Below are positions 799-58,004 of a DNA stretch of 64,000 bases, piece after piece. The notes beneath the pieces are model-generated. The model had not been told where the DNA came from. It saw only the letters and a program-made list of their open reading frames with translations, and did not search any database. This DNA is from an uncultured Methanosarcinales archaeon (GTDB lineage Archaea; Nanobdellota; Nanobdellia; Woesearchaeales; ARS49). Each line of letters starts with the position of its first letter. Position 1 is the first letter of the stretch. A program made the translations under genes and the position numbers. Location of the stretch: the NCBI GenBank assembly GCA_964637115.1, contig CAZWVL010000004.1:9879-73878 (forward strand). The letters are read 5' to 3'.

Positions 799-1445
799 TG
801 TGCCAATTCTCTCACCATTTTTAGAGTTGCTCTTCTGTGTTCTTCTGTTTTCTGTATTAGCTTTTCGTTTTCCTTTTTTACAAAATCATAGAATTTTTCT
901 ACTGCACCATTATTGCATCTATGGCCGACAATAGTGACTGTGTCAATTTCAGTCCTAACACTATAATAATCATCTCGATATCCGATTTTAAAGGCAACTC
1001 CTTGCAGAGCTCCCATGAAAATGCCAGTATATTCTCTGTCAGCTCCACGCTTCCATGATTCATACCATTTATCGCATTTTTTTCCAAGATTGATGATGTT
1101 ATCAACACTTGTTTTTGCATCAATTTTGAGAATTTCCCACGCACGTCCGCGTGCTACCATTTCGTGTTTTATTTTTACAGAATGAAAGAAGGCTTCAATT
1201 TCAGTATTGCTCTTGTTTTCTTCATAGGTATCGCGTTCATACTTTCCTAGCTCTGTTTTTTCTAATCTTGCCGAAATTTTATAAACGAAGTGTTCCATCC
1301 AATTTGAAGGTGCTAAATCCGTCCTAAAATCTATTCCTTCGTAATTTCCCTCATAACGAAGGCCTTCACGTATGCGGCTTATCTTCCATTCTTTCACTTT
1401 ATTCCCAAGCTTCAGAAGTTCGTCTAAAGAGAGTTGGTCGGTCAT
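795..1445 (-). CDS. MTD-leader family protein, copy B (216 aa), function unknown
   Basis: It has the same 20-aa N-terminal leader followed by a divergent body. Its start overlaps the stop of the upstream SBP gene (ATGA). Confidence 0.55.
   Translation of the reverse strand: MTDQLSLDELLKLGNKVKEWKISRIREGLRYEGNYEGIDFRTDLAPSNWMEHFVYKISARLEKTELGKYERDTYEENKSNTEIEAFFHSVKIKHEMVARGRAWEILKIDAKTSVDNIINLGKKCDKWYESWKRGADREYTGIFMGALQGVAFKIGYRDDYYSVRTEIDTVTIVGHRCNNGAVEKFYDFVKKENEKLIQKTEEHRRATLKMVRELAQ
1383..1445 (-). repeat. conserved ~60-nt 5' cassette of the MTD-leader family (copy B)
   Basis: ccattctttcactttattcccaagcttcagaagttcgtctaaagagagttggtcggtcat. Confidence 0.6.
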
Positions 1446-4046: not shown

Positions 4047-4417
4047 TTTCTTTCCTCCGCCATCACTTTTTTGATGTCTCTGCAGAGTTTTGTTAGGTAA
4101 GTTTGAGAAGAAACTTGAATGTGATACACATTCCTTAACCCACTACGATCATTAAATCCCATCGTATATAAGTTTCTGATATCATATCCACGTTTTCTAA
4201 GAACATTAATACGATCCAATTCCTTACCTAAATCATGTTTTTTAAATAGAACTATAACAGATAGTTCTAATTCTCTGACGTTATCATAGTAACAAATAGT
4301 TGTACGGGCGTTTATGTCATATGCACCAGATCCCTGAATATACCCATGGAAATGTTTCCTAAACACGTCCTTTATAGATTCGTCAAAGCTGATTTCTGTC
4401 ATCCCGTTTTTCTCCAC
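4043..4417 (-). CDS. hypothetical cytoplasmic protein (124 aa), paralog of 3633..4046
   Basis: Tandem paralog, 4-nt overlaps, embedded between SBP genes. Confidence 0.45.
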   Translation of the reverse strand: MEKNGMTEISFDESIKDVFRKHFHGYIQGSGAYDINARTTICYYDNVRELELSVIVLFKKHDLGKELDRINVLRKRGYDIRNLYTMGFNDRSGLRNVYHIQVSSQTYLTKLCRDIKKVMAEERK

Positions 4418-5487
4418 ATGCCGTTCTCAAATTTCGTCAACATGATCTCGCGGTCTATAATCTGATCACCATTATAGCTCACCACACCACTTACTCCGTT
4501 CATGGTCAAGTTGCGCATGTTGTTGGCAACACACAGTGTTTCCGTGCACCCTTCGTATGCTTTTGCCATTGTCATTGCGTCATCATACAATACTGCGCTT
4601 CCTCGCAAGAAATAAGCCTGCTTCTTGTCTTCCAGTTTTTTCTTGAACGAAACAAAAATAGGGTCAGTGCTCGCTTCATCAACTGCAATATCCGCGCCCA
4701 GAGCATCTTTCAGCACTTCTGGATAATCACGGCTGTTCTCAGAGCTTCCGCACCCAAAACTCTGGAAAGGTATTAGGATTTGAGCGGTAATTCCAAGCTC
4801 TTTTATCTGCTTATACGCGTTCGGGCAATCAGGTGCATACATTGCCAAGATGATAGCAGTGCTCCCTGAATTTTTTATCTTTGTGAATTGTGTTCTGAAA
4901 TCAATGCTTCCCTGATCGTACATCTCAGCTGCGGCAAGTTCGCCAATCTGCTCAACACCCTGCTTGCACAGCAGCGTAAACTCGGCATTTGTGCCGAACA
5001 GCGCAATTCGCTTGTTCTTAGCTTGCGTATACAATTTCTTGCACGCTTCAAAGCCGTCAAGCTGGTCTTTGAACACATAAGTTTTATTCGCTGAAAACGA
5101 ATTGACAACATTTACATAAATGAACGGCACTTTTGCATCTTCAGCTAATGGCGCTATAATGCCAGTGGGCATAACTGTGATGGTAAAAAGTGCATCGACG
5201 TTATCCACGTTGATTAGCTTCGCAGTCGCCGGTGCTACTTGCTTTTTATCGCTTGCAAAATCCTCATACAGCACTTCAACAGGCTTTCCGTTTATTCCAC
5301 CCGCGGCATTAATGTCTTCCACTGCTAGGTCTATTCCATATTTTGAAAACTCGCCATAAAACGCATTCGAGCCCGTTAATGGCAAAACTGCGCCGAATTT
5401 GTATGGTTTTATTTCAGCTTTTTCTACTTTAGCGCATGCTGATAGGAACAATAATGCTACAATTGTAAAGACCAAGAATTGTTTCAT
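4399..5487 (-). CDS. ABC transporter substrate-binding lipoprotein, LivK family (paralog 3)
   Basis: MKQFLVFTIVALLFLSAC lipobox; GAVLPLTGSNAFYGE; DINAAGGINGKPVEV. Confidence 0.85.
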   Translation of the reverse strand: MKQFLVFTIVALLFLSACAKVEKAEIKPYKFGAVLPLTGSNAFYGEFSKYGIDLAVEDINAAGGINGKPVEVLYEDFASDKKQVAPATAKLINVDNVDALFTITVMPTGIIAPLAEDAKVPFIYVNVVNSFSANKTYVFKDQLDGFEACKKLYTQAKNKRIALFGTNAEFTLLCKQGVEQIGELAAAEMYDQGSIDFRTQFTKIKNSGSTAIILAMYAPDCPNAYKQIKELGITAQILIPFQSFGCGSSENSRDYPEVLKDALGADIAVDEASTDPIFVSFKKKLEDKKQAYFLRGSAVLYDDAMTMAKAYEGCTETLCVANNMRNLTMNGVSGVVSYNGDQIIDREIMLTKFENGMWRKTG

Positions 5488-6567: not shown

Positions 6568-7650
6568 TTAATCTTCCAGCGGAACAAATCCGCCATTCTT
6601 GACCTGCATCAGTATGAGCGGTCTGTCAACATCGCCTTTTGAATCAAAGCTGAACGTTCCGCTGACTCCATTGTAGTTCTGCGTTGCGTACAGCTGTTGT
6701 TTTATGCAGTCGGTATCATCGTTGCATTGCTCAACGATTTTTGATATCAATTTCAACGCATCATACGCATTGGCTACAAACCACGAGAAGTTCGGATCGT
6801 TGTACACGTTTGCATATTTCTGCTTGAATTCTTGTGCTTGCTGCGTGCCGGGATTAAATCCTGACGTGTAGACTATTCCTTCTCCTGCGCCTTGGGCAGC
6901 AGTTAAGAATGCTTTATCCTCCATTGCTGGTGTTGTCAAGAATGGTCCTGTATATCCCATTTCTCGGGCGATTTTCAGGTTAATCCCTATGTCTTTTGCA
7001 AATCCTGACGTATAGATGACTTCAGGTTTGGAATCGATTACTTTGCTAATCTGGGTGCGTGCATCGCCTGAGTCTTTGTCATATAGCTCTTGTGCGACAA
7101 GTGTTCCTCCTAATTCTTGGTAGCGTGTGGCAAATGGATTCGCATAAGCAAGCGGCCCTTCTGCATTTGCATTTAGCATTGCTGCTTTTTTCCAGCCTTT
7201 TGAAATGGCATATTCAGCCATTGTTTTGCCATGGCCAGTCGCTGTTTCACGGTTTCTGAATGTGTAATCGCCTGCATCGGTAATCTTTCCTGTAACTGCA
7301 GTTGAGCTCAAAATTATGACTTTCTTTTGTTCTGCAAGTGGCGCGACTGCAAGAACTGAGCCTGAAAGGACAGGGCCGATGATTATCTTCACTCCGTCAA
7401 CATCAGTGAGCTTGTTGAACGCAGTAACTGCTACTTTTGTGTCGCTCTGCTCATCTTCGAATATAACGTCGACGTTGCTGACTTCTTTGAGCGCGAGATT
7501 GATTCCTTTGGTAATTCCTTCTCCATAATTTCCTTGCGCGCCGGTTAACGTCAAAATAATGCCGACTTTGACTTTTTCTGTTGGTTGTTCAACTTGTACG
7601 CATGCGCCCAAAAGCAACAATGCTAATATGACAAAGATTATTTTTTTCAT
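6568..7650 (-). CDS. ABC transporter substrate-binding lipoprotein, LivK family (paralog 5, most diverged)
   Basis: MKKIIFVILALLLLGAC lipobox; VGIILTLTGAQGNYGE. Confidence 0.8.
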   Translation of the reverse strand: MKKIIFVILALLLLGACVQVEQPTEKVKVGIILTLTGAQGNYGEGITKGINLALKEVSNVDVIFEDEQSDTKVAVTAFNKLTDVDGVKIIIGPVLSGSVLAVAPLAEQKKVIILSSTAVTGKITDAGDYTFRNRETATGHGKTMAEYAISKGWKKAAMLNANAEGPLAYANPFATRYQELGGTLVAQELYDKDSGDARTQISKVIDSKPEVIYTSGFAKDIGINLKIAREMGYTGPFLTTPAMEDKAFLTAAQGAGEGIVYTSGFNPGTQQAQEFKQKYANVYNDPNFSWFVANAYDALKLISKIVEQCNDDTDCIKQQLYATQNYNGVSGTFSFDSKGDVDRPLILMQVKNGGFVPLED

Positions 7651-8779: not shown

Positions 8780-9820
8780 TCAAAACTCCTTCTTCCACTC
8801 GAGCATGACAGCATGGCTGTCATCCCAGTGATTTGTAATTGGATTTTCGTTCAGATCTGCTTTGTACCAGATACGCAATCCGCTGTTGCCGAGCTCAAAT
8901 CGTAAACCGAGCATTGCACCATTGGTATCAGTTGCAAAGTTTCTTCGATATTCGATGCTCGGCGTAATGTCATTCAAGAATGCAAAGTCACCTATGTTGA
9001 GTGCGCCGCGGATTGATGCTTTTTTATCATGGGTGTAGGTTGCATCAATGCCGTAATCTCCTGTATCTTTGTCTACATAAATTTCGGCGTTGCCGAAGCT
9101 GAATGTTTTGAAGGATAATGGGAATGTTAAATCGCCCAAGACGCTAAGGGTGTTATGGTCCTCGTCATCAACGCCGAACACTTTTGCACGTTGTGCCCAC
9201 TGCTTTGAGCCGAGAGTAATACGGGCTTCTCTGAAATCGTTTTTACCGATTTTAATGTAGCTCCAGAGTGCTGCACCGTCTAATTTCAAGCTGTATGAAG
9301 CGTTTGCTTCCCAGTTGTTTCCGTTGTTAATATGTCCACCGGCGTATACTAAAGAGTCTCCAATTTCTGCTGTTAGCACACCGCTGGAATTGCCTTTGCT
9401 GTCAAATGCTGCTTCTAAGCCGAAATTGTCATCAAGTTTTAATCCGCCGAGCCAGATTACTTTGTGTTCATTGTTTTCTCTGTCTAACACATCAAATTCC
9501 AGTCCTGCAAATCCTTGTTTGGTATTGTATGAGAGGTATGCTTTGCCTTGGTCTAATGTTGCAGTATCGCGCCAGCCGAGATTAAGCCTGAAATTATCAT
9601 AGTAAAGGTCTGCACCTATTGCGGAATTGTCCTTGGAAGTTTCACCCATGACTTTGTTTCCTGCATACGAAACAATAGTCTGAGCTGCTTCATCGTGCCA
9701 TGTTTCTGCGTATACGCGTGTTTCCATTTTGACTGGTTTCACGTCCTGCGCAAACGCTCCAGTATAGAGCGCCAGCGCGGAGAGTGATGTCATCACTGCA
9801 TGTTTGAGTCTCTGTAACAT
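8780..9820 (-). CDS. secreted beta-rich protein with bacterial outer-membrane beta-barrel (porin-like) character
   Basis: Signal peptide MLQRLKHAVMTSLSALALYTGAFA|QD. About 320 aa of alternating-hydrophobic amphipathic strands with G, Y, N and D in the turns. The C-terminus is ...AVMLEWKKEF (terminal aromatic). It is the first gene of the minus-strand SBP operon. The tool ORF uses GTG at 9829. Confidence 0.5.
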   Translation of the reverse strand: MLQRLKHAVMTSLSALALYTGAFAQDVKPVKMETRVYAETWHDEAAQTIVSYAGNKVMGETSKDNSAIGADLYYDNFRLNLGWRDTATLDQGKAYLSYNTKQGFAGLEFDVLDRENNEHKVIWLGGLKLDDNFGLEAAFDSKGNSSGVLTAEIGDSLVYAGGHINNGNNWEANASYSLKLDGAALWSYIKIGKNDFREARITLGSKQWAQRAKVFGVDDEDHNTLSVLGDLTFPLSFKTFSFGNAEIYVDKDTGDYGIDATYTHDKKASIRGALNIGDFAFLNDITPSIEYRRNFATDTNGAMLGLRFELGNSGLRIWYKADLNENPITNHWDDSHAVMLEWKKEF

Positions 9821-9880
9821 TTCCACCACCTATGTTCAGTAGTGACATGAAACTAATTTATACTTTTTTATTAAACTATA

Positions 9881-16674: not shown

Positions 16675-17094
16675 ATGAACAAAAGAAACGATAACGGTCA
16701 TGTCAAATATTCACCGGATGCTTCATTAGTTAACAAGCTCAAGGTTGGAGATCATTATACTGAGATTTGGCAAGGTTTGCCCGATCACCCATTCGAGCCT
16801 TCTGCAACAACAGGTGGCAAGTCAGGCTTAAAGTATGAAACAAATGATAAATACGTCTGGGTTACGCCAAATACTGCTCGTGCACTGGAACAAAATCCGG
16901 ATGAAATTCTGTATGCCAGTATTAAGAAATCTAAAGACAAAGAGTATTGCGCCAGATGGGTAGAATCCATCAGCGGAACTTCCTTTGGAAATACTCTTGA
17001 AAGTGCTATTTCTCGAGCTCAAGAACTGAATATCGAAGAGTTACATAACAGAATCGAGAAGGATCGAAGAAAGAAATTGGAGGCCAAAAAATGA
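16675..17094 (+). CDS. hypothetical protein (~139 aa) leading the plus-strand SBP operon
   Basis: ORF whose stop overlaps the ATG of the following SBP gene (ATGA). The tool start is TTG at 16663. Confidence 0.4.
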   Translation: MNKRNDNGHVKYSPDASLVNKLKVGDHYTEIWQGLPDHPFEPSATTGGKSGLKYETNDKYVWVTPNTARALEQNPDEILYASIKKSKDKEYCARWVESISGTSFGNTLESAISRAQELNIEELHNRIEKDRRKKLEAKK

Positions 17095-45273: not shown

Positions 45274-45380
45274 ATTTCTTTCTCCCGGTGTTTTTTATTG
45301 CCTCACACCGTGTTTGTTCGTGCCAAGCTGGCATAAACTGTTGGCAATACATTGTCGTCGAGAAGGGTTGTTTATAAAGC

Positions 45381-46442
45381 TTATGGTCCATAGCCGAAAC
45401 GCCGTCTGAGATTAGTAAGGCGTTTTATTAGCTCGGGATCCATTGTTCTTTTTTTTGCTTTTTCCAAACCTGCTAGAAGGGGCAAAAAGAGATCTAGTCT
45501 GGTCTTATTGATGACTTCTTGCGCTTCGCCGGACAGTTCTATTTTGTTGAAAATGAATTGCAATGGGAAAACGCTATAGCCTGGCGGCAGCGTTATTACT
45601 TGTTGTTGTTCTGGATGTTCTTTTGCAAAGACGTAGTCAAGGGTTATAGCATCATGTTCTTTTTGTTCATATGGTGCGCTGAGGAAGCTTGCATGTCTTT
45701 CTATTTCCCCTGGCCAGAATATCATTCCTGTCAGAGTGTCGATTGAAAATACGCGATGCGATTGCAACATGCCTGGAACATCGTAATACCTGCCAAGAGT
45801 CATTCCTGTGCCGATATTTTCGCCTGGCAATTCTTCGAATTTTCCTTTGAGGAATTCAACATTTTTTTGAACGCGATGTTCTACGGACAAATCATAACCC
45901 CGCAGACTGCGTTCTTCAGGATTCATGGGTTTTTCAATTCTTTGCAGTGCTACTTGTGATGCAGTTATTGCATCACCTATTTCTTGTATTTTGCTGTAAA
46001 GTACGACTATATCGTTCATAAGTCCGCTGTAATGAGATTTTGATTCGACTATTGTTGCTTCACCCGCTTTTTTTCGGTATAGTGCTTCCAGTTCGCTGCG
46101 TGATAGCATGAAATCTTGTGCTAATGCTTCTTTTCCGCCTACGAGAAAATATAGGTCGAATTGCCCCTTGTAGTTTTTGATTGCTTCTTTTATTATGTTC
46201 ATTTCACTTTGTGAAATGGCCACTTCCTGCATTCTGGCTATATCTGTGAGTGCATGCACCAGGCGCACGATTGATGAAAGAAGTTTTGTTAATTCATTCG
46301 CGCGTGTTTCTCGTGCTAATCCTTGAACTGTTTTGAGAAATCCTGATAGACTGGCGTACTTGCCGTCAATACTTACAACAACATTTTGGTTTCCGCACGG
46401 CCCAATGCATCGTTGTGATACCTCTTTAAGCGATATCGCCAT
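45381..46442 (-). CDS. hypothetical protein (353 aa)
   Basis: ORF upstream of rps2 on the same strand. No motif recognised. Confidence 0.4.
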   Translation of the reverse strand: MAISLKEVSQRCIGPCGNQNVVVSIDGKYASLSGFLKTVQGLARETRANELTKLLSSIVRLVHALTDIARMQEVAISQSEMNIIKEAIKNYKGQFDLYFLVGGKEALAQDFMLSRSELEALYRKKAGEATIVESKSHYSGLMNDIVVLYSKIQEIGDAITASQVALQRIEKPMNPEERSLRGYDLSVEHRVQKNVEFLKGKFEELPGENIGTGMTLGRYYDVPGMLQSHRVFSIDTLTGMIFWPGEIERHASFLSAPYEQKEHDAITLDYVFAKEHPEQQQVITLPPGYSVFPLQFIFNKIELSGEAQEVINKTRLDLFLPLLAGLEKAKKRTMDPELIKRLTNLRRRFGYGP

Positions 46443-46987: not shown

Positions 46988-47018
46988 TGTAAAGAAAAAA
47001 GATAATAAAAATAAAAAC
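46988..47018 (-). terminator. oligo-T tract after the TRAM gene (archaeal-style terminator) doubling as an AT-rich promoter for thpR
   Basis: Minus strand reads GTTTTTATTTTTATTATCTTTTTTCTTT immediately after the TRAM stop. thpR's ATG follows ~30 nt later, which suggests a leaderless transcript. Confidence 0.35.
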
Positions 47019-47465
47019 TTATTGTTCGTCAGATGGTTCTTCAGCTGGTTCCTCGGCTGGTGCTTCCTCTGCAGGAGCTTCTTCGCCAAAGCTTTCAGAG
47101 TCCTCTGAAGATTCTGCAGGTGCTTCTTCTGCTGGAGCTTCTGCAGGCGCTTCTGCTGGTGCTTCTTCGCCAAAGCTTTCAGATTCTCCTGCTGGAGCTT
47201 CTGCTGCTGGTGCCGTGCCTTGTCCGACGACTTCTGCAAAACCGACTTTGCGCAACACTTTTGTTACGCGAATTTTGATTTGCTGTCCTTCTTTGACGCC
47301 CGGAACGAACAACACGAAGCCATTTTTCTTGGCTATGCCGTCGCCTTTTTCGCCAACTGCTTCTATGGTGACGTCTAATTCGTCACCAACTTTGACTGGT
47401 GGGGTTTGCATCCCCATGCCTCCGCCTTGTGGTCGGAAGCCTCCTGATCTTCTATCTCCGTACAT
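47019..47465 (-). CDS. TRAM-domain protein with an unusual acidic (APAEE)n C-terminal tail
   Basis: VKVGDELDVTIEAVGEKGDGIAKKNGFVLFVPGVKEGQQIKIRVTKVLRKVGFAEVV is the stand-alone archaeal TRAM fold. It has a Gly/Arg-rich N-terminus and a ~55-aa tail of EAPAE repeats. Confidence 0.7.
   Translation of the reverse strand: MYGDRRSGGFRPQGGGMGMQTPPVKVGDELDVTIEAVGEKGDGIAKKNGFVLFVPGVKEGQQIKIRVTKVLRKVGFAEVVGQGTAPAAEAPAGESESFGEEAPAEAPAEAPAEEAPAESSEDSESFGEEAPAEEAPAEEPAEEPSDEQ
47040..47220 (-). repeat. approximately 87-nt tandem duplication inside the TRAM tail coding region
   Basis: ...gcttcttcgccaaagctttcaga... occurs twice (near 47074 and 47161), flanked by gctggagcttctgc repeats. It encodes SESFGEEAPAE(E)APAE twice. 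Confidence 0.6.
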
Positions 47466-50932: not shown

Positions 50933-51910
50933 TTACTGCTGGCTTACTCTTGCCAGTTCTTCTTCTGGGTTTGCTTTGTAGACTTGGTTTACGATGAATT
51001 CTATTCTGTCAAAGAACGTGTTTTTCTTCGCACGGCCGATAAATCTGAATTGTTCTCCCAATAATTCTGTTTTAAGAGGTTCAAATGTTTCTGGATTGAC
51101 TCTGTAAGCTACCATTTGCTCTTTGTTTTTGCTGAGTAATCTTTCTGCTTGGTTTCTGAACAATACTATTCTCATATTCTCCGTGCCATCATCTAGAAAC
51201 ACATTAACTAAGTAACTATAGTCAGGCATTAATGCCGAGTGTTCTTCACACACCCATTGTCCTTCTACTTCTTTCAGTCTTGATGAACATTGTGGGCAGA
51301 CTTCGAAGAACTTAGGATCAAATACTTGTACGATTGTGCCTACAACTTCTACTTGTTCGTCGCTTTCTGTTAGTTCTTTCAGGGTTTTGCGTGTTGCTTT
51401 GTTTGGCTTTACTTCTGGCACGGTTTCTTTTGGATTTAAGTTTACTCTGCTTCCTTCATTGAGATGTACTTCTTTGTAGCCTCTTTGATTCTCGCGTACC
51501 ATTCCTCCTGATACTTTGACTGGCGCGCCTGTGCTTATCTGAGCAAGTAAATCTGCTTGATTTCCCCAACAGACTATTCGCACAACGCCTGTATCGTCTC
51601 CCACTAAGAAGCTGCCAACTTTTCCTGCGCTGCCGTCTGCGCGTTTGAATTCTTTGACTTCGTAAATTTGTGTTACTCTGCCAAGGATTTCTGCATTTCT
51701 CATGCCTGGCAGTAAATCTTTTATTTTGCCGCCGCCTTCAAAGAGCTTTACTCCTAATTCATTTGCAATTATGTGTGCCGCGCCTTCTTTAGAAATGAGT
51801 CCTGCAAGTGCTACGCATTTGGCGTCTATTCTTGTCATCAAATCTGCTTCTGCAAGACCTGTTTTTTCTTTTATGCGCGCCAATATGTCTGGCAATGGCA
51901 TTCTAATCAT
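50933..51910 (-). CDS. rpa: replication protein A (ssDNA-binding, OB folds plus zinc ribbon)
   Basis: The N-terminal wH/OB region, the central OB (VGSFLVGDDTGVVRIVCW) and the C4 zinc motif CPQCSSRL...C.EH are typical of archaeal RPA. Confidence 0.8.
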   Translation of the reverse strand: MIRMPLPDILARIKEKTGLAEADLMTRIDAKCVALAGLISKEGAAHIIANELGVKLFEGGGKIKDLLPGMRNAEILGRVTQIYEVKEFKRADGSAGKVGSFLVGDDTGVVRIVCWGNQADLLAQISTGAPVKVSGGMVRENQRGYKEVHLNEGSRVNLNPKETVPEVKPNKATRKTLKELTESDEQVEVVGTIVQVFDPKFFEVCPQCSSRLKEVEGQWVCEEHSALMPDYSYLVNVFLDDGTENMRIVLFRNQAERLLSKNKEQMVAYRVNPETFEPLKTELLGEQFRFIGRAKKNTFFDRIEFIVNQVYKANPEEELARVSQQ

Positions 51911-51985
51911 GTTTTACCCCATTGTTGGCAGAAATTGGTGTTTTATAAATATTTGTGTGGTGCGGTGTAAGTCAAATTAGTATAT

Positions 51986-52081
51986 CTAAGCCGCCGCGCC
52001 TCAATTACACTGAGGTGAATTTTTTTCTCCCCTTGCAAATGCAGGGGAGAAAAAATTCAGTCAAAAACCGCGGCGGCTTAG
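51986..52081. other. 96-nt structured element bounded by perfect 13-bp terminal inverted repeats (candidate ncRNA or MITE-like element)
   Basis: CTAAGCCGCCGCG at 51986 and CGCGGCGGCTTAG at 52069 are exact reverse complements. Between them lie hairpin CCTCA-attacac-TGAGG, a T7 run, hairpin TCTCCCCT-tgcaaatgc-AGGGGAGA and an A6 run. The element is GC-rich in an AT-rich intergenic region between rpa and the pilin cluster. Confidence 0.5.
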
Positions 52082-52118
52082 TAAAGCAGAACCAGCGCGT
52101 CGCTGTTCAGAAAGACAG

Positions 52119-52658
52119 TTACGGCTTGCACGCGCTTAGGTCTGTTTTTGTGTCTATAGTAAAGCTCGGGGCAAACCATATGTGTCCGATATTTTCAAGA
52201 ACTAATCCTTTTAGTGTCAGGTCTTGTTTGACGGGCAGGATTGCAATTGCGTGGATGTTCTTGCCCTCCAAATAGAGTTCATAATTGTTTTTTGGGATTT
52301 TTGTGACGGGCGATTGTGCATTGTAAGCATCTATGTATTTGTCGAGTTCTTGGTTGAATCTTGGTGTTAGGCCTGTTGTGCACGCAGTAAGTACGTCAGG
52401 CATAGAAAGTTCTGCTGATTTTTCAAGATATGTTATGATGTTTTCTTTTACATATGGCGCTTTTAACAGCGCCATTTCAGTATCTCCCAGCGTTGTCTTG
52501 TTTTCCGCAACTTTTGTGGTGAGCTGCAAGAACAGGAACGAAAGTGCCATAACTACCACAACTATCATGCTGAGTGCATAATCTAGTCCGCGCTTCGAAA
52601 AACGAAGTTTTTTGAAGCTAGAAAATGCCGTGCATTTTCTTTGTTTGTTCATCCCCAT
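52119..52658 (-). CDS. class III signal peptide (archaeal type IV pilin-like) protein
   Basis: N-terminus ...KLRFSKRG|LDYALSMIVVVVMALSFLF (basic, then Gly, then a hydrophobic helix). Its 5' coding region carries the conserved palindromic motif. Confidence 0.55.
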   Translation of the reverse strand: MGMNKQRKCTAFSSFKKLRFSKRGLDYALSMIVVVVMALSFLFLQLTTKVAENKTTLGDTEMALLKAPYVKENIITYLEKSAELSMPDVLTACTTGLTPRFNQELDKYIDAYNAQSPVTKIPKNNYELYLEGKNIHAIAILPVKQDLTLKGLVLENIGHIWFAPSFTIDTKTDLSACKP

Positions 52659-53164: not shown

Positions 53165-53657
53165 ATTTTCTTGGATAATATTCTTCTATGGTTAAATTCT
53201 GGATTGTGCCTTCTGCCATTACTTTGCGTTGTTCTATGTAAGTTTCATACTTGAATTTGGCAAGGGGTTTTGCGCGTTTGTAGAATAGTTCATCGTAAAC
53301 CGCACTTTTTCCGTCGAGTGAAACATTGTAAGTGAGAAGTTTTGTCGTGTAGAGCTTATCCAACCCAGCCAAGTTTGCAGTATAAAGGAATGGGCTTGTT
53401 TGCCCCGTGTATTCACTTGTAATCCAAAGTCTGCTTTTTATCTGTTGTGCTAGGACTGCTTGGTCTATTGATATCGGTTGCACACTGGATTCAACAAGGT
53501 TTTTTGGAATTATGACCATTGATAACGCTACACACGCAGTGAGGAATGCGTACCACGCTGCAAAAAGGAGAAGATTTCTGGGTCCATTCGCTCTCCTTGA
53601 AAAGCGTAGCTTTTCGAGGCTCGAAAATGCCGTGCATCGTTGCTTATACCACGCCAT
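53148..53657 (-). CDS. class III signal peptide pilin-like protein
   Basis: ...EKLRFSRRANGPRNLLLFAAWYAFLTACVALSMVII. Carries the conserved 5' motif. Confidence 0.5.
   Translation of the reverse strand: MAWYKQRCTAFSSLEKLRFSRRANGPRNLLLFAAWYAFLTACVALSMVIIPKNLVESSVQPISIDQAVLAQQIKSRLWITSEYTGQTSPFLYTANLAGLDKLYTTKLLTYNVSLDGKSAVYDELFYKRAKPLAKFKYETYIEQRKVMAEGTIQNLTIEEYYPRKYELKK
53590..53650 (-). promoter_or_regulatory. conserved palindrome-rich 5' coding motif, copy 2 (pilin gene 53148..53657)
   Basis: It encodes CTAFSSLEKLRFSRRA. There are two overlapping, mutually exclusive hairpins: GAAAAGC-gta-GCTTTTC and TTTTCGA-ggc-TCGAAAA. Confidence 0.4.
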
Positions 53658-57684: not shown

Positions 57685-58004
57685 GGACTTGGGTTGTTTG
57701 TTTTTGGCATGTTTCTCGGGATGCTTGCTCCGCTCAGTCTTGTTTCAAATTCTGCATCGCATGCTTGGTCTGAATAAATGCCTGCTGGCGCGCCTGATGG
57801 CGGGTTTAATTTGTAGCATCTGCCTGCGCATTCGTTTGCTGCTTGTCCGACCTTTCTCATTTGTCCGCCGAATATGGCACCAATGACTACGAGAACTAAT
57901 ATGCCTAGTGCTGCAATGATGATTGTGCTTATTGGTAAGCCTTGTGCTCTCCTTGAAAAGCGAAGCTTTTCATGGCTCGAAAACGTGAGTTTTCGTTGTT
58001 TCAT
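57648..58004 (-). CDS. small Cys-rich class III signal peptide pilin-like protein (118 aa)
   Basis: ...KLRFSRRAQG|LPISTIIIAALGILVLVVIGAIFGG, with 6 Cys (CAGRCY...ACDAEF...WRCDECC). Carries the conserved 5' motif. Confidence 0.55.
   Translation of the reverse strand: MKQRKLTFSSHEKLRFSRRAQGLPISTIIIAALGILVLVVIGAIFGGQMRKVGQAANECAGRCYKLNPPSGAPAGIYSDQACDAEFETRLSGASIPRNMPKTNNPSPWRCDECCILTG
57945..58004 (-). promoter_or_regulatory. conserved palindrome-rich 5' coding motif, copy 3 (pilin gene 57648..58004)
   Basis: It encodes LTFSSHEKLRFSRRAQG. Hairpins GAAAAGC-gaa-GCTTTTC and CGAAAAC-gtga-GTTTTCG. Confidence 0.4.

Follow-up and report, generated by a model that had tools for sequence, protein, structure and literature searches.

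The analysed window is a stretch of 64,000 nucleotides (positions 9,879 to 73,878 of contig CAZWVL010000004.1, assembly GCA_964637115.1) from an uncultured archaeon of the order Woesearchaeales. It contains a 96-nt palindromic segment (51986-52081) in the intergenic region next to rpa, which is described here as the core of a probable foldback repeat resembling MITEs (miniature transposable elements with inverted repeats). DPANN archaea such as Woesearchaeota, to which the RPA protein assigns the window, have tiny and tightly packed genomes with spacers of about 50 bp. The rpa gene (50933-51910) and the pilin-like open reading frame (ORF) upstream of it (52119-52658) are both located on the minus strand in tandem, and not as the convergent transcription units assumed in the preliminary description. 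On this strand the element follows the stop codon of the upstream gene and precedes the TATA box of rpa. Since that TATA box separates it from the start codon of rpa, it has its place upstream of the promoter and outside the 5' untranslated region (UTR) of rpa. The upstream genes had been labelled as a pilin cluster. This label was inferred from their N-termini, which do resemble signal peptides, while no pilin family was found by Pfam for these ORFs, and they are referred to here as pilin-like. The only ORF spanning the element is spurious and antisense to the neighbouring gene.

The 96-nt segment is bounded by a perfect 13-bp inverted repeat, CTAAGCCGCCGCG (51986-51998) and CGCGGCGGCTTAG (52069-52081), with a spacing of 70 nt, in agreement with the preliminary description. 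Another perfect 13-bp inverted repeat, TTTTTTCTCCCCT and AGGGGAGAAAAAA (52021-52033 and 52043-52055), is nested inside it. In the whole window, these two pairs are the sole perfect inverted repeats of 13 nt or more at a spacing of up to 300 nt. The 96-mer folds as RNA with -54 kcal/mol on the plus strand and -56 kcal/mol on the minus strand, and the DNA fold has -35 kcal/mol. The folding z-score is about -10 on both strands, as RNA or as DNA, and none of 200 shuffled sequences equalled the native one. The two perfect repeats, the z-score and the shuffling result together establish that the palindrome is real and far beyond chance. Inside the outer stem (P1), hairpin 1 has the 5-bp stem CCTCA/TGAGG which had been noted earlier. 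The second hairpin is considerably longer than the 8 bp assigned to it before, as its stem has about 19 bp (52017-52058), and the T7 and A6 tracts taken as separators of the hairpins pair with each other as arms of this one stem. The segment had also been called strikingly GC-rich. This was overstated, as its GC content is 47% against about 38-46% in the flanks, and the GC-rich part is confined to the outer arms. The earlier observation is thus partly confirmed, and its interpretation is partly supported.

The homologous sequence extends beyond the 96 nt. The nhmmer profile of the family matches 51967-52121, and the 96-mer is best explained as the core, a conserved three-way junction, of a foldback element which is about 150 nt long and non-coding. 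The perfect 13-bp repeat of the window copy lies inside the element, and only an imperfect pairing (GTAAGTC / GAC(AG)TTAC) is formed by the outermost ends. The part next to the upstream gene has one more small hairpin (52089-52108) and also takes in the stop codon of that gene (52119-52121).

The site was compared with 80 rpa loci from GTDB species genomes and with contigs of closer relatives (L-numbers label the loci of relatives). The site is filled in the window, in L001, an independent Logan assembly which reproduces the window sequence exactly, and in L084, L085 and L086. In L002-L006, L009, L083, L087, L095/96, L097/98, L099, L100 and L101, the spacer is about 50-90 bp long and has no element. 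In the closest of these (L083, L095, L099 and L101), the stop codon runs directly into the conserved promoter, ...ACACAAAT(A/C)TTTATAAAAC. Among the relatives whose site can be read, L100 is the nearest, with RPA 97% and DNA about 89% identical to the window. Pairwise alignment showed that L100 has 9 nt in place of the roughly 150 nt (51978-52127) of the window and L001. A search of the element against the 80 GTDB Woesearchaeota rpa loci by blastn-short gave no match. The contig of L082, another relative with 97% RPA identity, was observed to start near the end of the window insertion (TTGAGTACACCGCACC..., L082:1-20). L082 probably carries extra DNA at the site, and the start of its contig there suggests that the palindrome breaks short-read assemblies.

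L084, L085 and L086 are three independent Joint Genome Institute (JGI) assemblies of another lineage (RPA 89%), in which this intergenic site holds a homologous element. The core of the L084 copy is 89% identical to that of the window, and the flanking genes are about 78% identical. The L084 copy is inverted relative to rpa as compared with the window, which is seen from the markers CCTCA..TGAGGTGAA and TCAGTC.AA.ACC. Its hairpin 2 has a compensatory change (CTCCCCT/AGGGGAG to CTCCCCC/GGGGGAG), and its hairpin 1 is extended to CCTCAAC/GTTGAGG. L084 contains one copy in 21 kb. The site of L095, the RPA of which differs from that of L084 at few residues only, is empty. This distribution takes fewer events if there were two separate gains than if a single gain was followed by one inversion and by five or more precise losses.

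More copies were found in L097 (GCA_038868995.1) with an nhmmer profile made from the window and L084 copies and with a covariance model, R1. Four related copies are present in 21 kb of this genome, at three other intergenic sites and just upstream of TATA promoters (Table 1). They flank housekeeping genes such as rpsB and have mixed orientation. Copies of the family span 110-142 nt, and those of L097 have flanking direct repeats of 6-9 bp. At copy B, the GCATAGG occurring twice in L097 corresponds to a single CATAGAG or CATAAGG in the window genome and L084. Copies A and D are adjacent, and the target sequence is found three times around them (CCTTGGAAC / CCTTGAAAC). The ends of copies A and B match as inverted repeats at about 20 of 24 nt. 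The common architecture consists of imperfect outer arms, a GC-rich closing stem of variable sequence, hairpin 1 and a T-run/A-run hairpin 2, with a small fourth hairpin in some copies (GTC-GAA-GAC in L084 and GTCTCAC-GCT-GTGAGAC in copy D of L097). The P1 stem is present in every long copy and differs in sequence among them. The preliminary description had proposed that multiple copies would indicate a MITE. The window gave a single copy, and the four related copies are those of L097.

The structure of the element is conserved without favouring either strand. Across six copies, pairing is found in 93% of the cells of hairpins 1 and 2, and changes on both sides in 9 of the 18 pairs. This level of pairing was reached by none of 500 shuffles, and controls slid along the sequence gave about 50%. 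Copy D of L097 has its own compensatory version of hairpin 1, CCTTGGC/GCCAAGG. Both strands fold equally well across the copies. Over the union of pairs, G.U and A.C combinations number 19 and 17, and the Alifold energies of the two strands are -16.0 and -13.9. The hairpins are thus kept by compensatory change, and neither strand is favoured.

The element is most probably a MITE-like foldback repeat from a small family which is restricted to a subclade of Woesearchaeota, and we hold this reading with reasonable though not high confidence. It is based on the small size (below the 500 bp taken as the limit for MITEs), the lack of genes, the inverted ends, the direct repeats of the sister copies, the multiple copies, the occurrence in both orientations, the filled and empty sites and the strand-neutral structure. 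The MITE suggested in the preliminary description is in essence supported by the filled and empty sites, the inverted copy and the four copies of L097, and less well by the one copy in the window. In the proposed event, it was inserted as DNA where the last pilin-like gene ends and the B recognition element (BRE)/TATA promoter of rpa follows after a very short spacer. Having no gene or promoter of its own, the element would presumably be moved in trans by some transposase. This may be an enzyme of the DDE type, as the sister copies have direct repeats of 6-9 bp at their flanks.

An insertion of this kind may influence transcription. Through its T-run and A-run arms, hairpin 2 would give most copies, in any orientation, an oligo-T of at least five together with stable hairpins on the transcribed strand. 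On the minus strand, which is the gene strand, T5 and T6 start 51 and 64 nt past the stop codon in the window, and the plus strand has T7. Runs of T5-T7 are found on at least one strand in every copy and on the strand of the flanking genes in five of the six; copy C of L097 has its T-run solely on the non-gene strand. Both strands have such runs in the window, L084 and two of the four L097 copies, and a single strand in the other two L097 copies. The efficiency of archaeal termination rests on the U-tracts of terminators together with aCPSF1 (PMC8716108). Because of this dependence on U-tracts and the oligo-T on both strands, the element probably acts upstream of rpa as an archaeal terminator or insulator which works in either orientation. 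Read-through from the pilin-like cluster into rpa would be terminated or insulated in this way, and the 3' end of the upstream mRNA may be stabilised. The termination effect could be incidental, without having been selected as a function. The bidirectional terminator of the preliminary description was founded on convergent transcription units, which do not exist here, but termination in either orientation is plausible from the T-runs.

Several points weigh against the MITE-like reading. For two insertions to be present at one spot in opposite orientation, either a preference for the target or strong filtering by survivorship is required. L100 shares ATTTGAC and CACCGCAC with the window beside the junction, so that it could have arisen by deletion and would then not represent a pristine empty site. 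The relatives called close are about 90% identical in DNA, and the insertions are not demonstrably recent. Comparison of the window and L084 copies with L095, L099, L100, L083 and L101 identified no flanking direct repeat for either copy, and the outer ends of both are ill-defined. At the complex junctions, 8 extra nt (AGCCGTAA) stand before the native CTGT codons, besides the motifs shared with L100. Compensatory changes in palindromic DNA can also arise without selection. No second copy was found in the 64-kb window by terminal motifs with up to three mismatches, by nhmmer or by R1 with filters off. A metagenome scan with TGAGGTGAATTTTTN{0,4}CTCCCC gave six chance matches, in unrelated contigs only; the collection does not cover the JGI contigs known to hold the motif, and these were not recovered by the scan. 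Neither a transposase nor a longer element with matching ends was found in the contigs of relatives or in the window, whose ORFs were not searched for transposase domains. A repeat scan of the window gave no insertion-sequence-like pair of terminal repeats, and a scan of viral contigs for the element gave no match. Two matches in the window, 9054-9113 and 45429-45513, were rejected as copies since they are inside ORFs.

Table 1. Positions of the element, its parts and related features (window coordinates unless a locus is named)
Feature	Position	Strand	Remarks
Putative whole insertion	51978..52127		Extra sequence relative to the empty site of L100; the 96-mer reported earlier is its core
Promoter-proximal outer part, TGTAAGTCAAATTAGTATAT	51966..51985		Resembles the terminal repeat AAGTCAACTTAATGG of L097 copies in alignments; boundary uncertain, ATTTGAC common to L100
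Outer stem P1, 5' arm, CTAAGCCGCCGCG	51986..51998		Perfect 13-bp pairing with 52069-52081
Hairpin 1, CCTCA-ATTACAC-TGAGG	51999..52015	+	Predicted folds; compensatory changes in L084 and L097 copy D
Hairpin 2, long stem, T-run+CTCCCC / GGGGAG+A-run	52017..52058	+	Predicted fold; perfect arms 52021-52033 and 52043-52055; source of T7 on the plus strand and T6 on the minus strand
Single-stranded joiner, AGTCAAAAAC	52059..52068	+	Degenerate counterpart of the small fourth hairpin of other copies
Outer stem P1, 3' arm, CGCGGCGGCTTAG	52069..52081		Inverted repeat of 51986-51998
Stop-codon-proximal outer part	52082..52122		End ...CAGAAAGACAGTTAC resembles ...CAGAAACTTGACTTAAC of L097 copies
rpa promoter TATA box, TTTATAAA	51942..51949	-	Conserved in all relatives; outside the element
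L097 copy A	16780-16910		Preceded by CCTTGGAAC
L097 copy D	16920-17061		Terminal inverted repeats GGCTGTATTGAAAGG / GCGGTATTGAAAAG, 12/14 nt; exact 9-bp flanking repeat CCTTGAAAC
L097 copy B	1307-1441		GCATAGG on both sides; single copy at empty sites
L097 copy C	4417-4526		AAATAG on both sides
Two-hairpin modules, window	52588-52640, 53590-53640, 57946-57995	-	In frame; peptide KQRKCTAFSSFKKLRFSKRG-like
Two-hairpin modules, other loci	L003:106-163, 2488-2539, 4057-4121; L006:1883-1947; L097:5963-6026

The explanation which competes best with the MITE-like reading is a cis-acting RNA element of the host, such as a terminator, a 3'-UTR stabiliser or an insulator, which was inherited vertically at this locus, lost repeatedly in relatives and flipped once by recombination between its 13-bp arms, and which would not be mobile. 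It accounts for the exact placement between a stop codon and the next promoter, the T-runs on both strands and the hairpins kept through compensatory change. The flanks of the window and L084 copies are also weakly alike in gene orientation (CTGTCTTTCTGAA versus CTTCATTTCCTAA, and ...GCACCACACAAAT in both), which is the pattern that inversion of the core in situ would produce, and the ATTTGAC of L100 may be a remnant. However, this explanation needs at least five independent precise losses, each restoring the stop-codon/promoter junction of the outgroups. The L097 copies at three unrelated loci with flanking direct repeats do not fit with it, nor does the core of the window and L084 being more alike than the genes around it. 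We regard it as unlikely, though it deserves more weight than the explanations which follow.

A folded-DNA recombination site, either attC-like or a small inverton, tied to shuffling or switching of the pilin-like cluster is improbable. Such a site would have a conserved structure with variable sequence and fold on both strands, as observed here, and the core does occur in both orientations at one site with perfect inverted repeats bounding it, next to paralogous pilin-like genes which carry related hairpin modules. The ends CTAAGCC... / ...GGCTTAG, however, do not match the attC core RYYYAAC / GTTRRRY, and the GTTAAGT and ACTTAAC of the L097 copies are in the wrong relative arrangement. The window has a single site and no cassette array, the L097 copies flank housekeeping genes in mixed orientation, and there is no recombinase or integrase among the Pfam-annotated neighbours. 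The two orientations come from genomes about 78% identical with non-identical flanks, and not from one population. Furthermore, the 70-nt segment has T-runs in both orientations, so that flipping would leave its output unchanged.

A small structured RNA with the outer stem closing a two-hairpin core was another proposal of the preliminary description, and it would be an independent non-coding RNA gene with one strand transcribed. The very stable fold with covariation is compatible with it, and a divergent transcript of the plus strand could in principle start from the rpa TATA box, which is palindromic and about 40 nt upstream. A promoter at a fixed position is missing, though, both the orientation and the upstream sequence differ between the window and L084, and the element is absent in most relatives. 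The wobble pairs have no strand bias, and the internal T5-T7 runs on both strands would stop archaeal RNA polymerase before the closing stem (PMC8716108). The Rfam scan proposed as a check returned nothing meaningful: no match at the gathering score in the whole window and, at E<=10 on 51700-52400, chance matches resembling microRNA precursors (E>=0.26), and no Rfam family. ARAGORN detected no tRNA or transfer-messenger RNA (tmRNA) in the 64 kb. An RNA gene of this kind is accordingly very improbable. By eye, tRNA, a tRNA-Sec-like 9/4 fold, split or intron-containing tRNA, C/D and H/ACA sRNAs, the K-turn and ORB origin boxes were also rejected, as arm lengths, loops and boxes did not fit. A fortuitous palindrome with no history or function is hardly credible, since its one favourable point, the single copy in the window, is set against the folding statistics, the nested 13-bp repeats unique in 64 kb and the homologous copies in two other genomes, which refute it.

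Weak matches of R1 in L003 were found to be two-hairpin modules placed in frame at the start of small membrane or pilin-like genes, and such modules are present in the window and other loci (Table 1). The modules are about 45-55 nt long and made up of a GC hairpin followed by a T-run/A-run hairpin, and their hairpins are kept by compensatory change while the peptide differs. They are flanked by AAAAAAG- or AAACGAGG-type repeats, an A-rich motif with GG which equals a Shine-Dalgarno-like sequence or Lys-Gly codons. Individual orthologues have none, one or two of them. The 17 module-encoded codons are missing from the orthologues in L097 and L084, and L095 has two tandem 51-nt modules (6885-6993; peptide RSSKLAFGGSFFPHGKK, twice) where the L084 orthologue (6862-6880) has none. 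The L095 pair sits right after ATGAAAAAA and each copy ends in AAAAAAG, which is the target sequence, as if this had been duplicated. A second model, R2, with four short modules only, matches the L084 core at E~0.002 and the window core at E~0.18 in the same orientation, and it also locates further modules where genes start in L097, L003, L087 and the distant L021. The module at L003:4057-4121 and L084 share ...AAAAAA..CAGTC(A)GAAGAC. These likenesses raise the tentative idea, for which the odds are rather low at present, that the 96-nt element is the long intergenic form of a wider, undescribed Woesearchaeota family of two-hairpin modules. The evidence for the long element and the short modules as one family is suggestive and not conclusive. 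The module type itself is widespread, as L021 is a distant Woesearchaeote with 53% identical RPA. If true, a mobile hairpin may target gene starts and promoters and be tolerated since the leader peptide is removed. Alternatively, a cis-regulatory RNA or DNA signal of the pilin-like cluster, not known so far, may have been copied into a mobile shell. The in-frame modules of the pilin leaders, if confirmed, would be a more interesting lead than the element. In L087 (4276-4340) and L021 (8749-8808), module-like two-hairpin elements were also observed in 5' UTRs, flanked by AAACGAGG or AAA(C/T)GAGG repeats, and their second hairpin would pair with the Shine-Dalgarno-like GAGG.

Some other features were observed in the window and its relatives. 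The window (1-64000) is very gene-dense, with only about eight intergenic gaps above 100 bp, and no tRNA, tmRNA or Rfam family was detected in it. The rpsB gene, encoding ribosomal protein S2, has a conserved leader of about 85-130 nt after its TATA box in the window (45283-45380, minus strand), in L084 (16581-16699) and in L095, L097, L099 and L087. It forms nested hairpins (TTGCCAAC ... GCCAGCTTGGC ... GGCAA) with compensatory variation between genomes and is a candidate ribosomal-protein leader. Inside an ORF at 47013-47204, a degenerate tandem repeat (GCTGGTKCTTCY-like) has a period of 12 nt and probably encodes a low-complexity acidic or proline/alanine-rich segment. Stretches of 63 nt with 89-95% identity are located at the 5' ends of three consecutive minus-strand genes (300-362, 737-799 and 1384-1446) and may represent paralogous N-termini or recent gene conversion. 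In the gene order of L097 (1-6000), an APH-like gene is placed differently from the window and L084. The rearranged region is bordered by copies B and C and includes a non-coding gap of 416 bp (2056-2472), in which a module-like piece lies at 2094-2149. The element repeats may be associated with this rearrangement.

The element provides a concrete and alignable foldback repeat family in Woesearchaeota, with filled and empty sites, both orientations and compensatory structure. It is also a testable case of a selfish insertion possibly supplying a transcription stop and an insulator before a replication gene. Furthermore, the family marks strain-level variation which could break or confuse metagenome assemblies. 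To our knowledge, mobile DNA and gene-boundary signals of DPANN archaea are almost unstudied. In a census of MITEs, a woesearchaeal genome was among those with the highest MITE densities in archaea (PMC11602168). On the MITE-like reading, the element adds one more example to a kind of selfish DNA which is already known, from a phylum that has been little studied.

Prokaryotic MITEs, including those of Sulfolobus, Halobacterium and Haloquadratum, are small and non-coding and have inverted repeats at or near their ends (PMC11602168, PMC10969869), as does the element with its about 110-150 nt. Both form a stable stem-loop, are intergenic in either orientation and are present or absent between relatives, and the flanking direct repeats of 6-9 bp and several copies of L097 add to the likeness. 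The window copy differs in having no recognisable target duplication and in being single in 64 kb. With about 47-54% GC, the element is also not AT-rich, and its interior is a conserved multi-helix junction with compensatory changes and not a simple foldback.

ERIC, Correia/NEMIS, REP/BIME and SPRITE are short palindromic intergenic repeats which are co-transcribed with their neighbours in both orientations. Bacterial palindromic repeats can serve as terminators, RNA-stability elements and processing sites. Mobile repeats resembling terminators are known in bacteria, such as SPRITE, the pneumococcal element similar to a rho-independent terminator (PMC10969869). The present element is like SPRITE, ERIC, Correia and REP in being a short dispersed intergenic palindrome found in both orientations, but it shares no sequence similarity with them and its copy number seems low. 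Its host is archaeal and terminates through oligo-U and aCPSF1, not through a hairpin with a U-run, so any terminator effect of the element would come from its T-runs.

The palindromic elements of Rickettsia resemble the short two-hairpin modules, which likewise lie in frame and are present or absent between orthologues (PMC10969869). The modules differ from them in their length of about 45-55 nt, their restriction to leader-coding N-termini or 5' UTRs and their flanking A-rich repeats with GG, and the 96-nt element is intergenic. The attC sites of integrons (57-141 nt) are, like the element, imperfect palindromes which are conserved in structure and not in sequence and which fold as single-stranded DNA. 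The element differs from attC in having no core-site motifs, cassette arrays or uniform orientation, and no integrase is found among its annotated neighbours.

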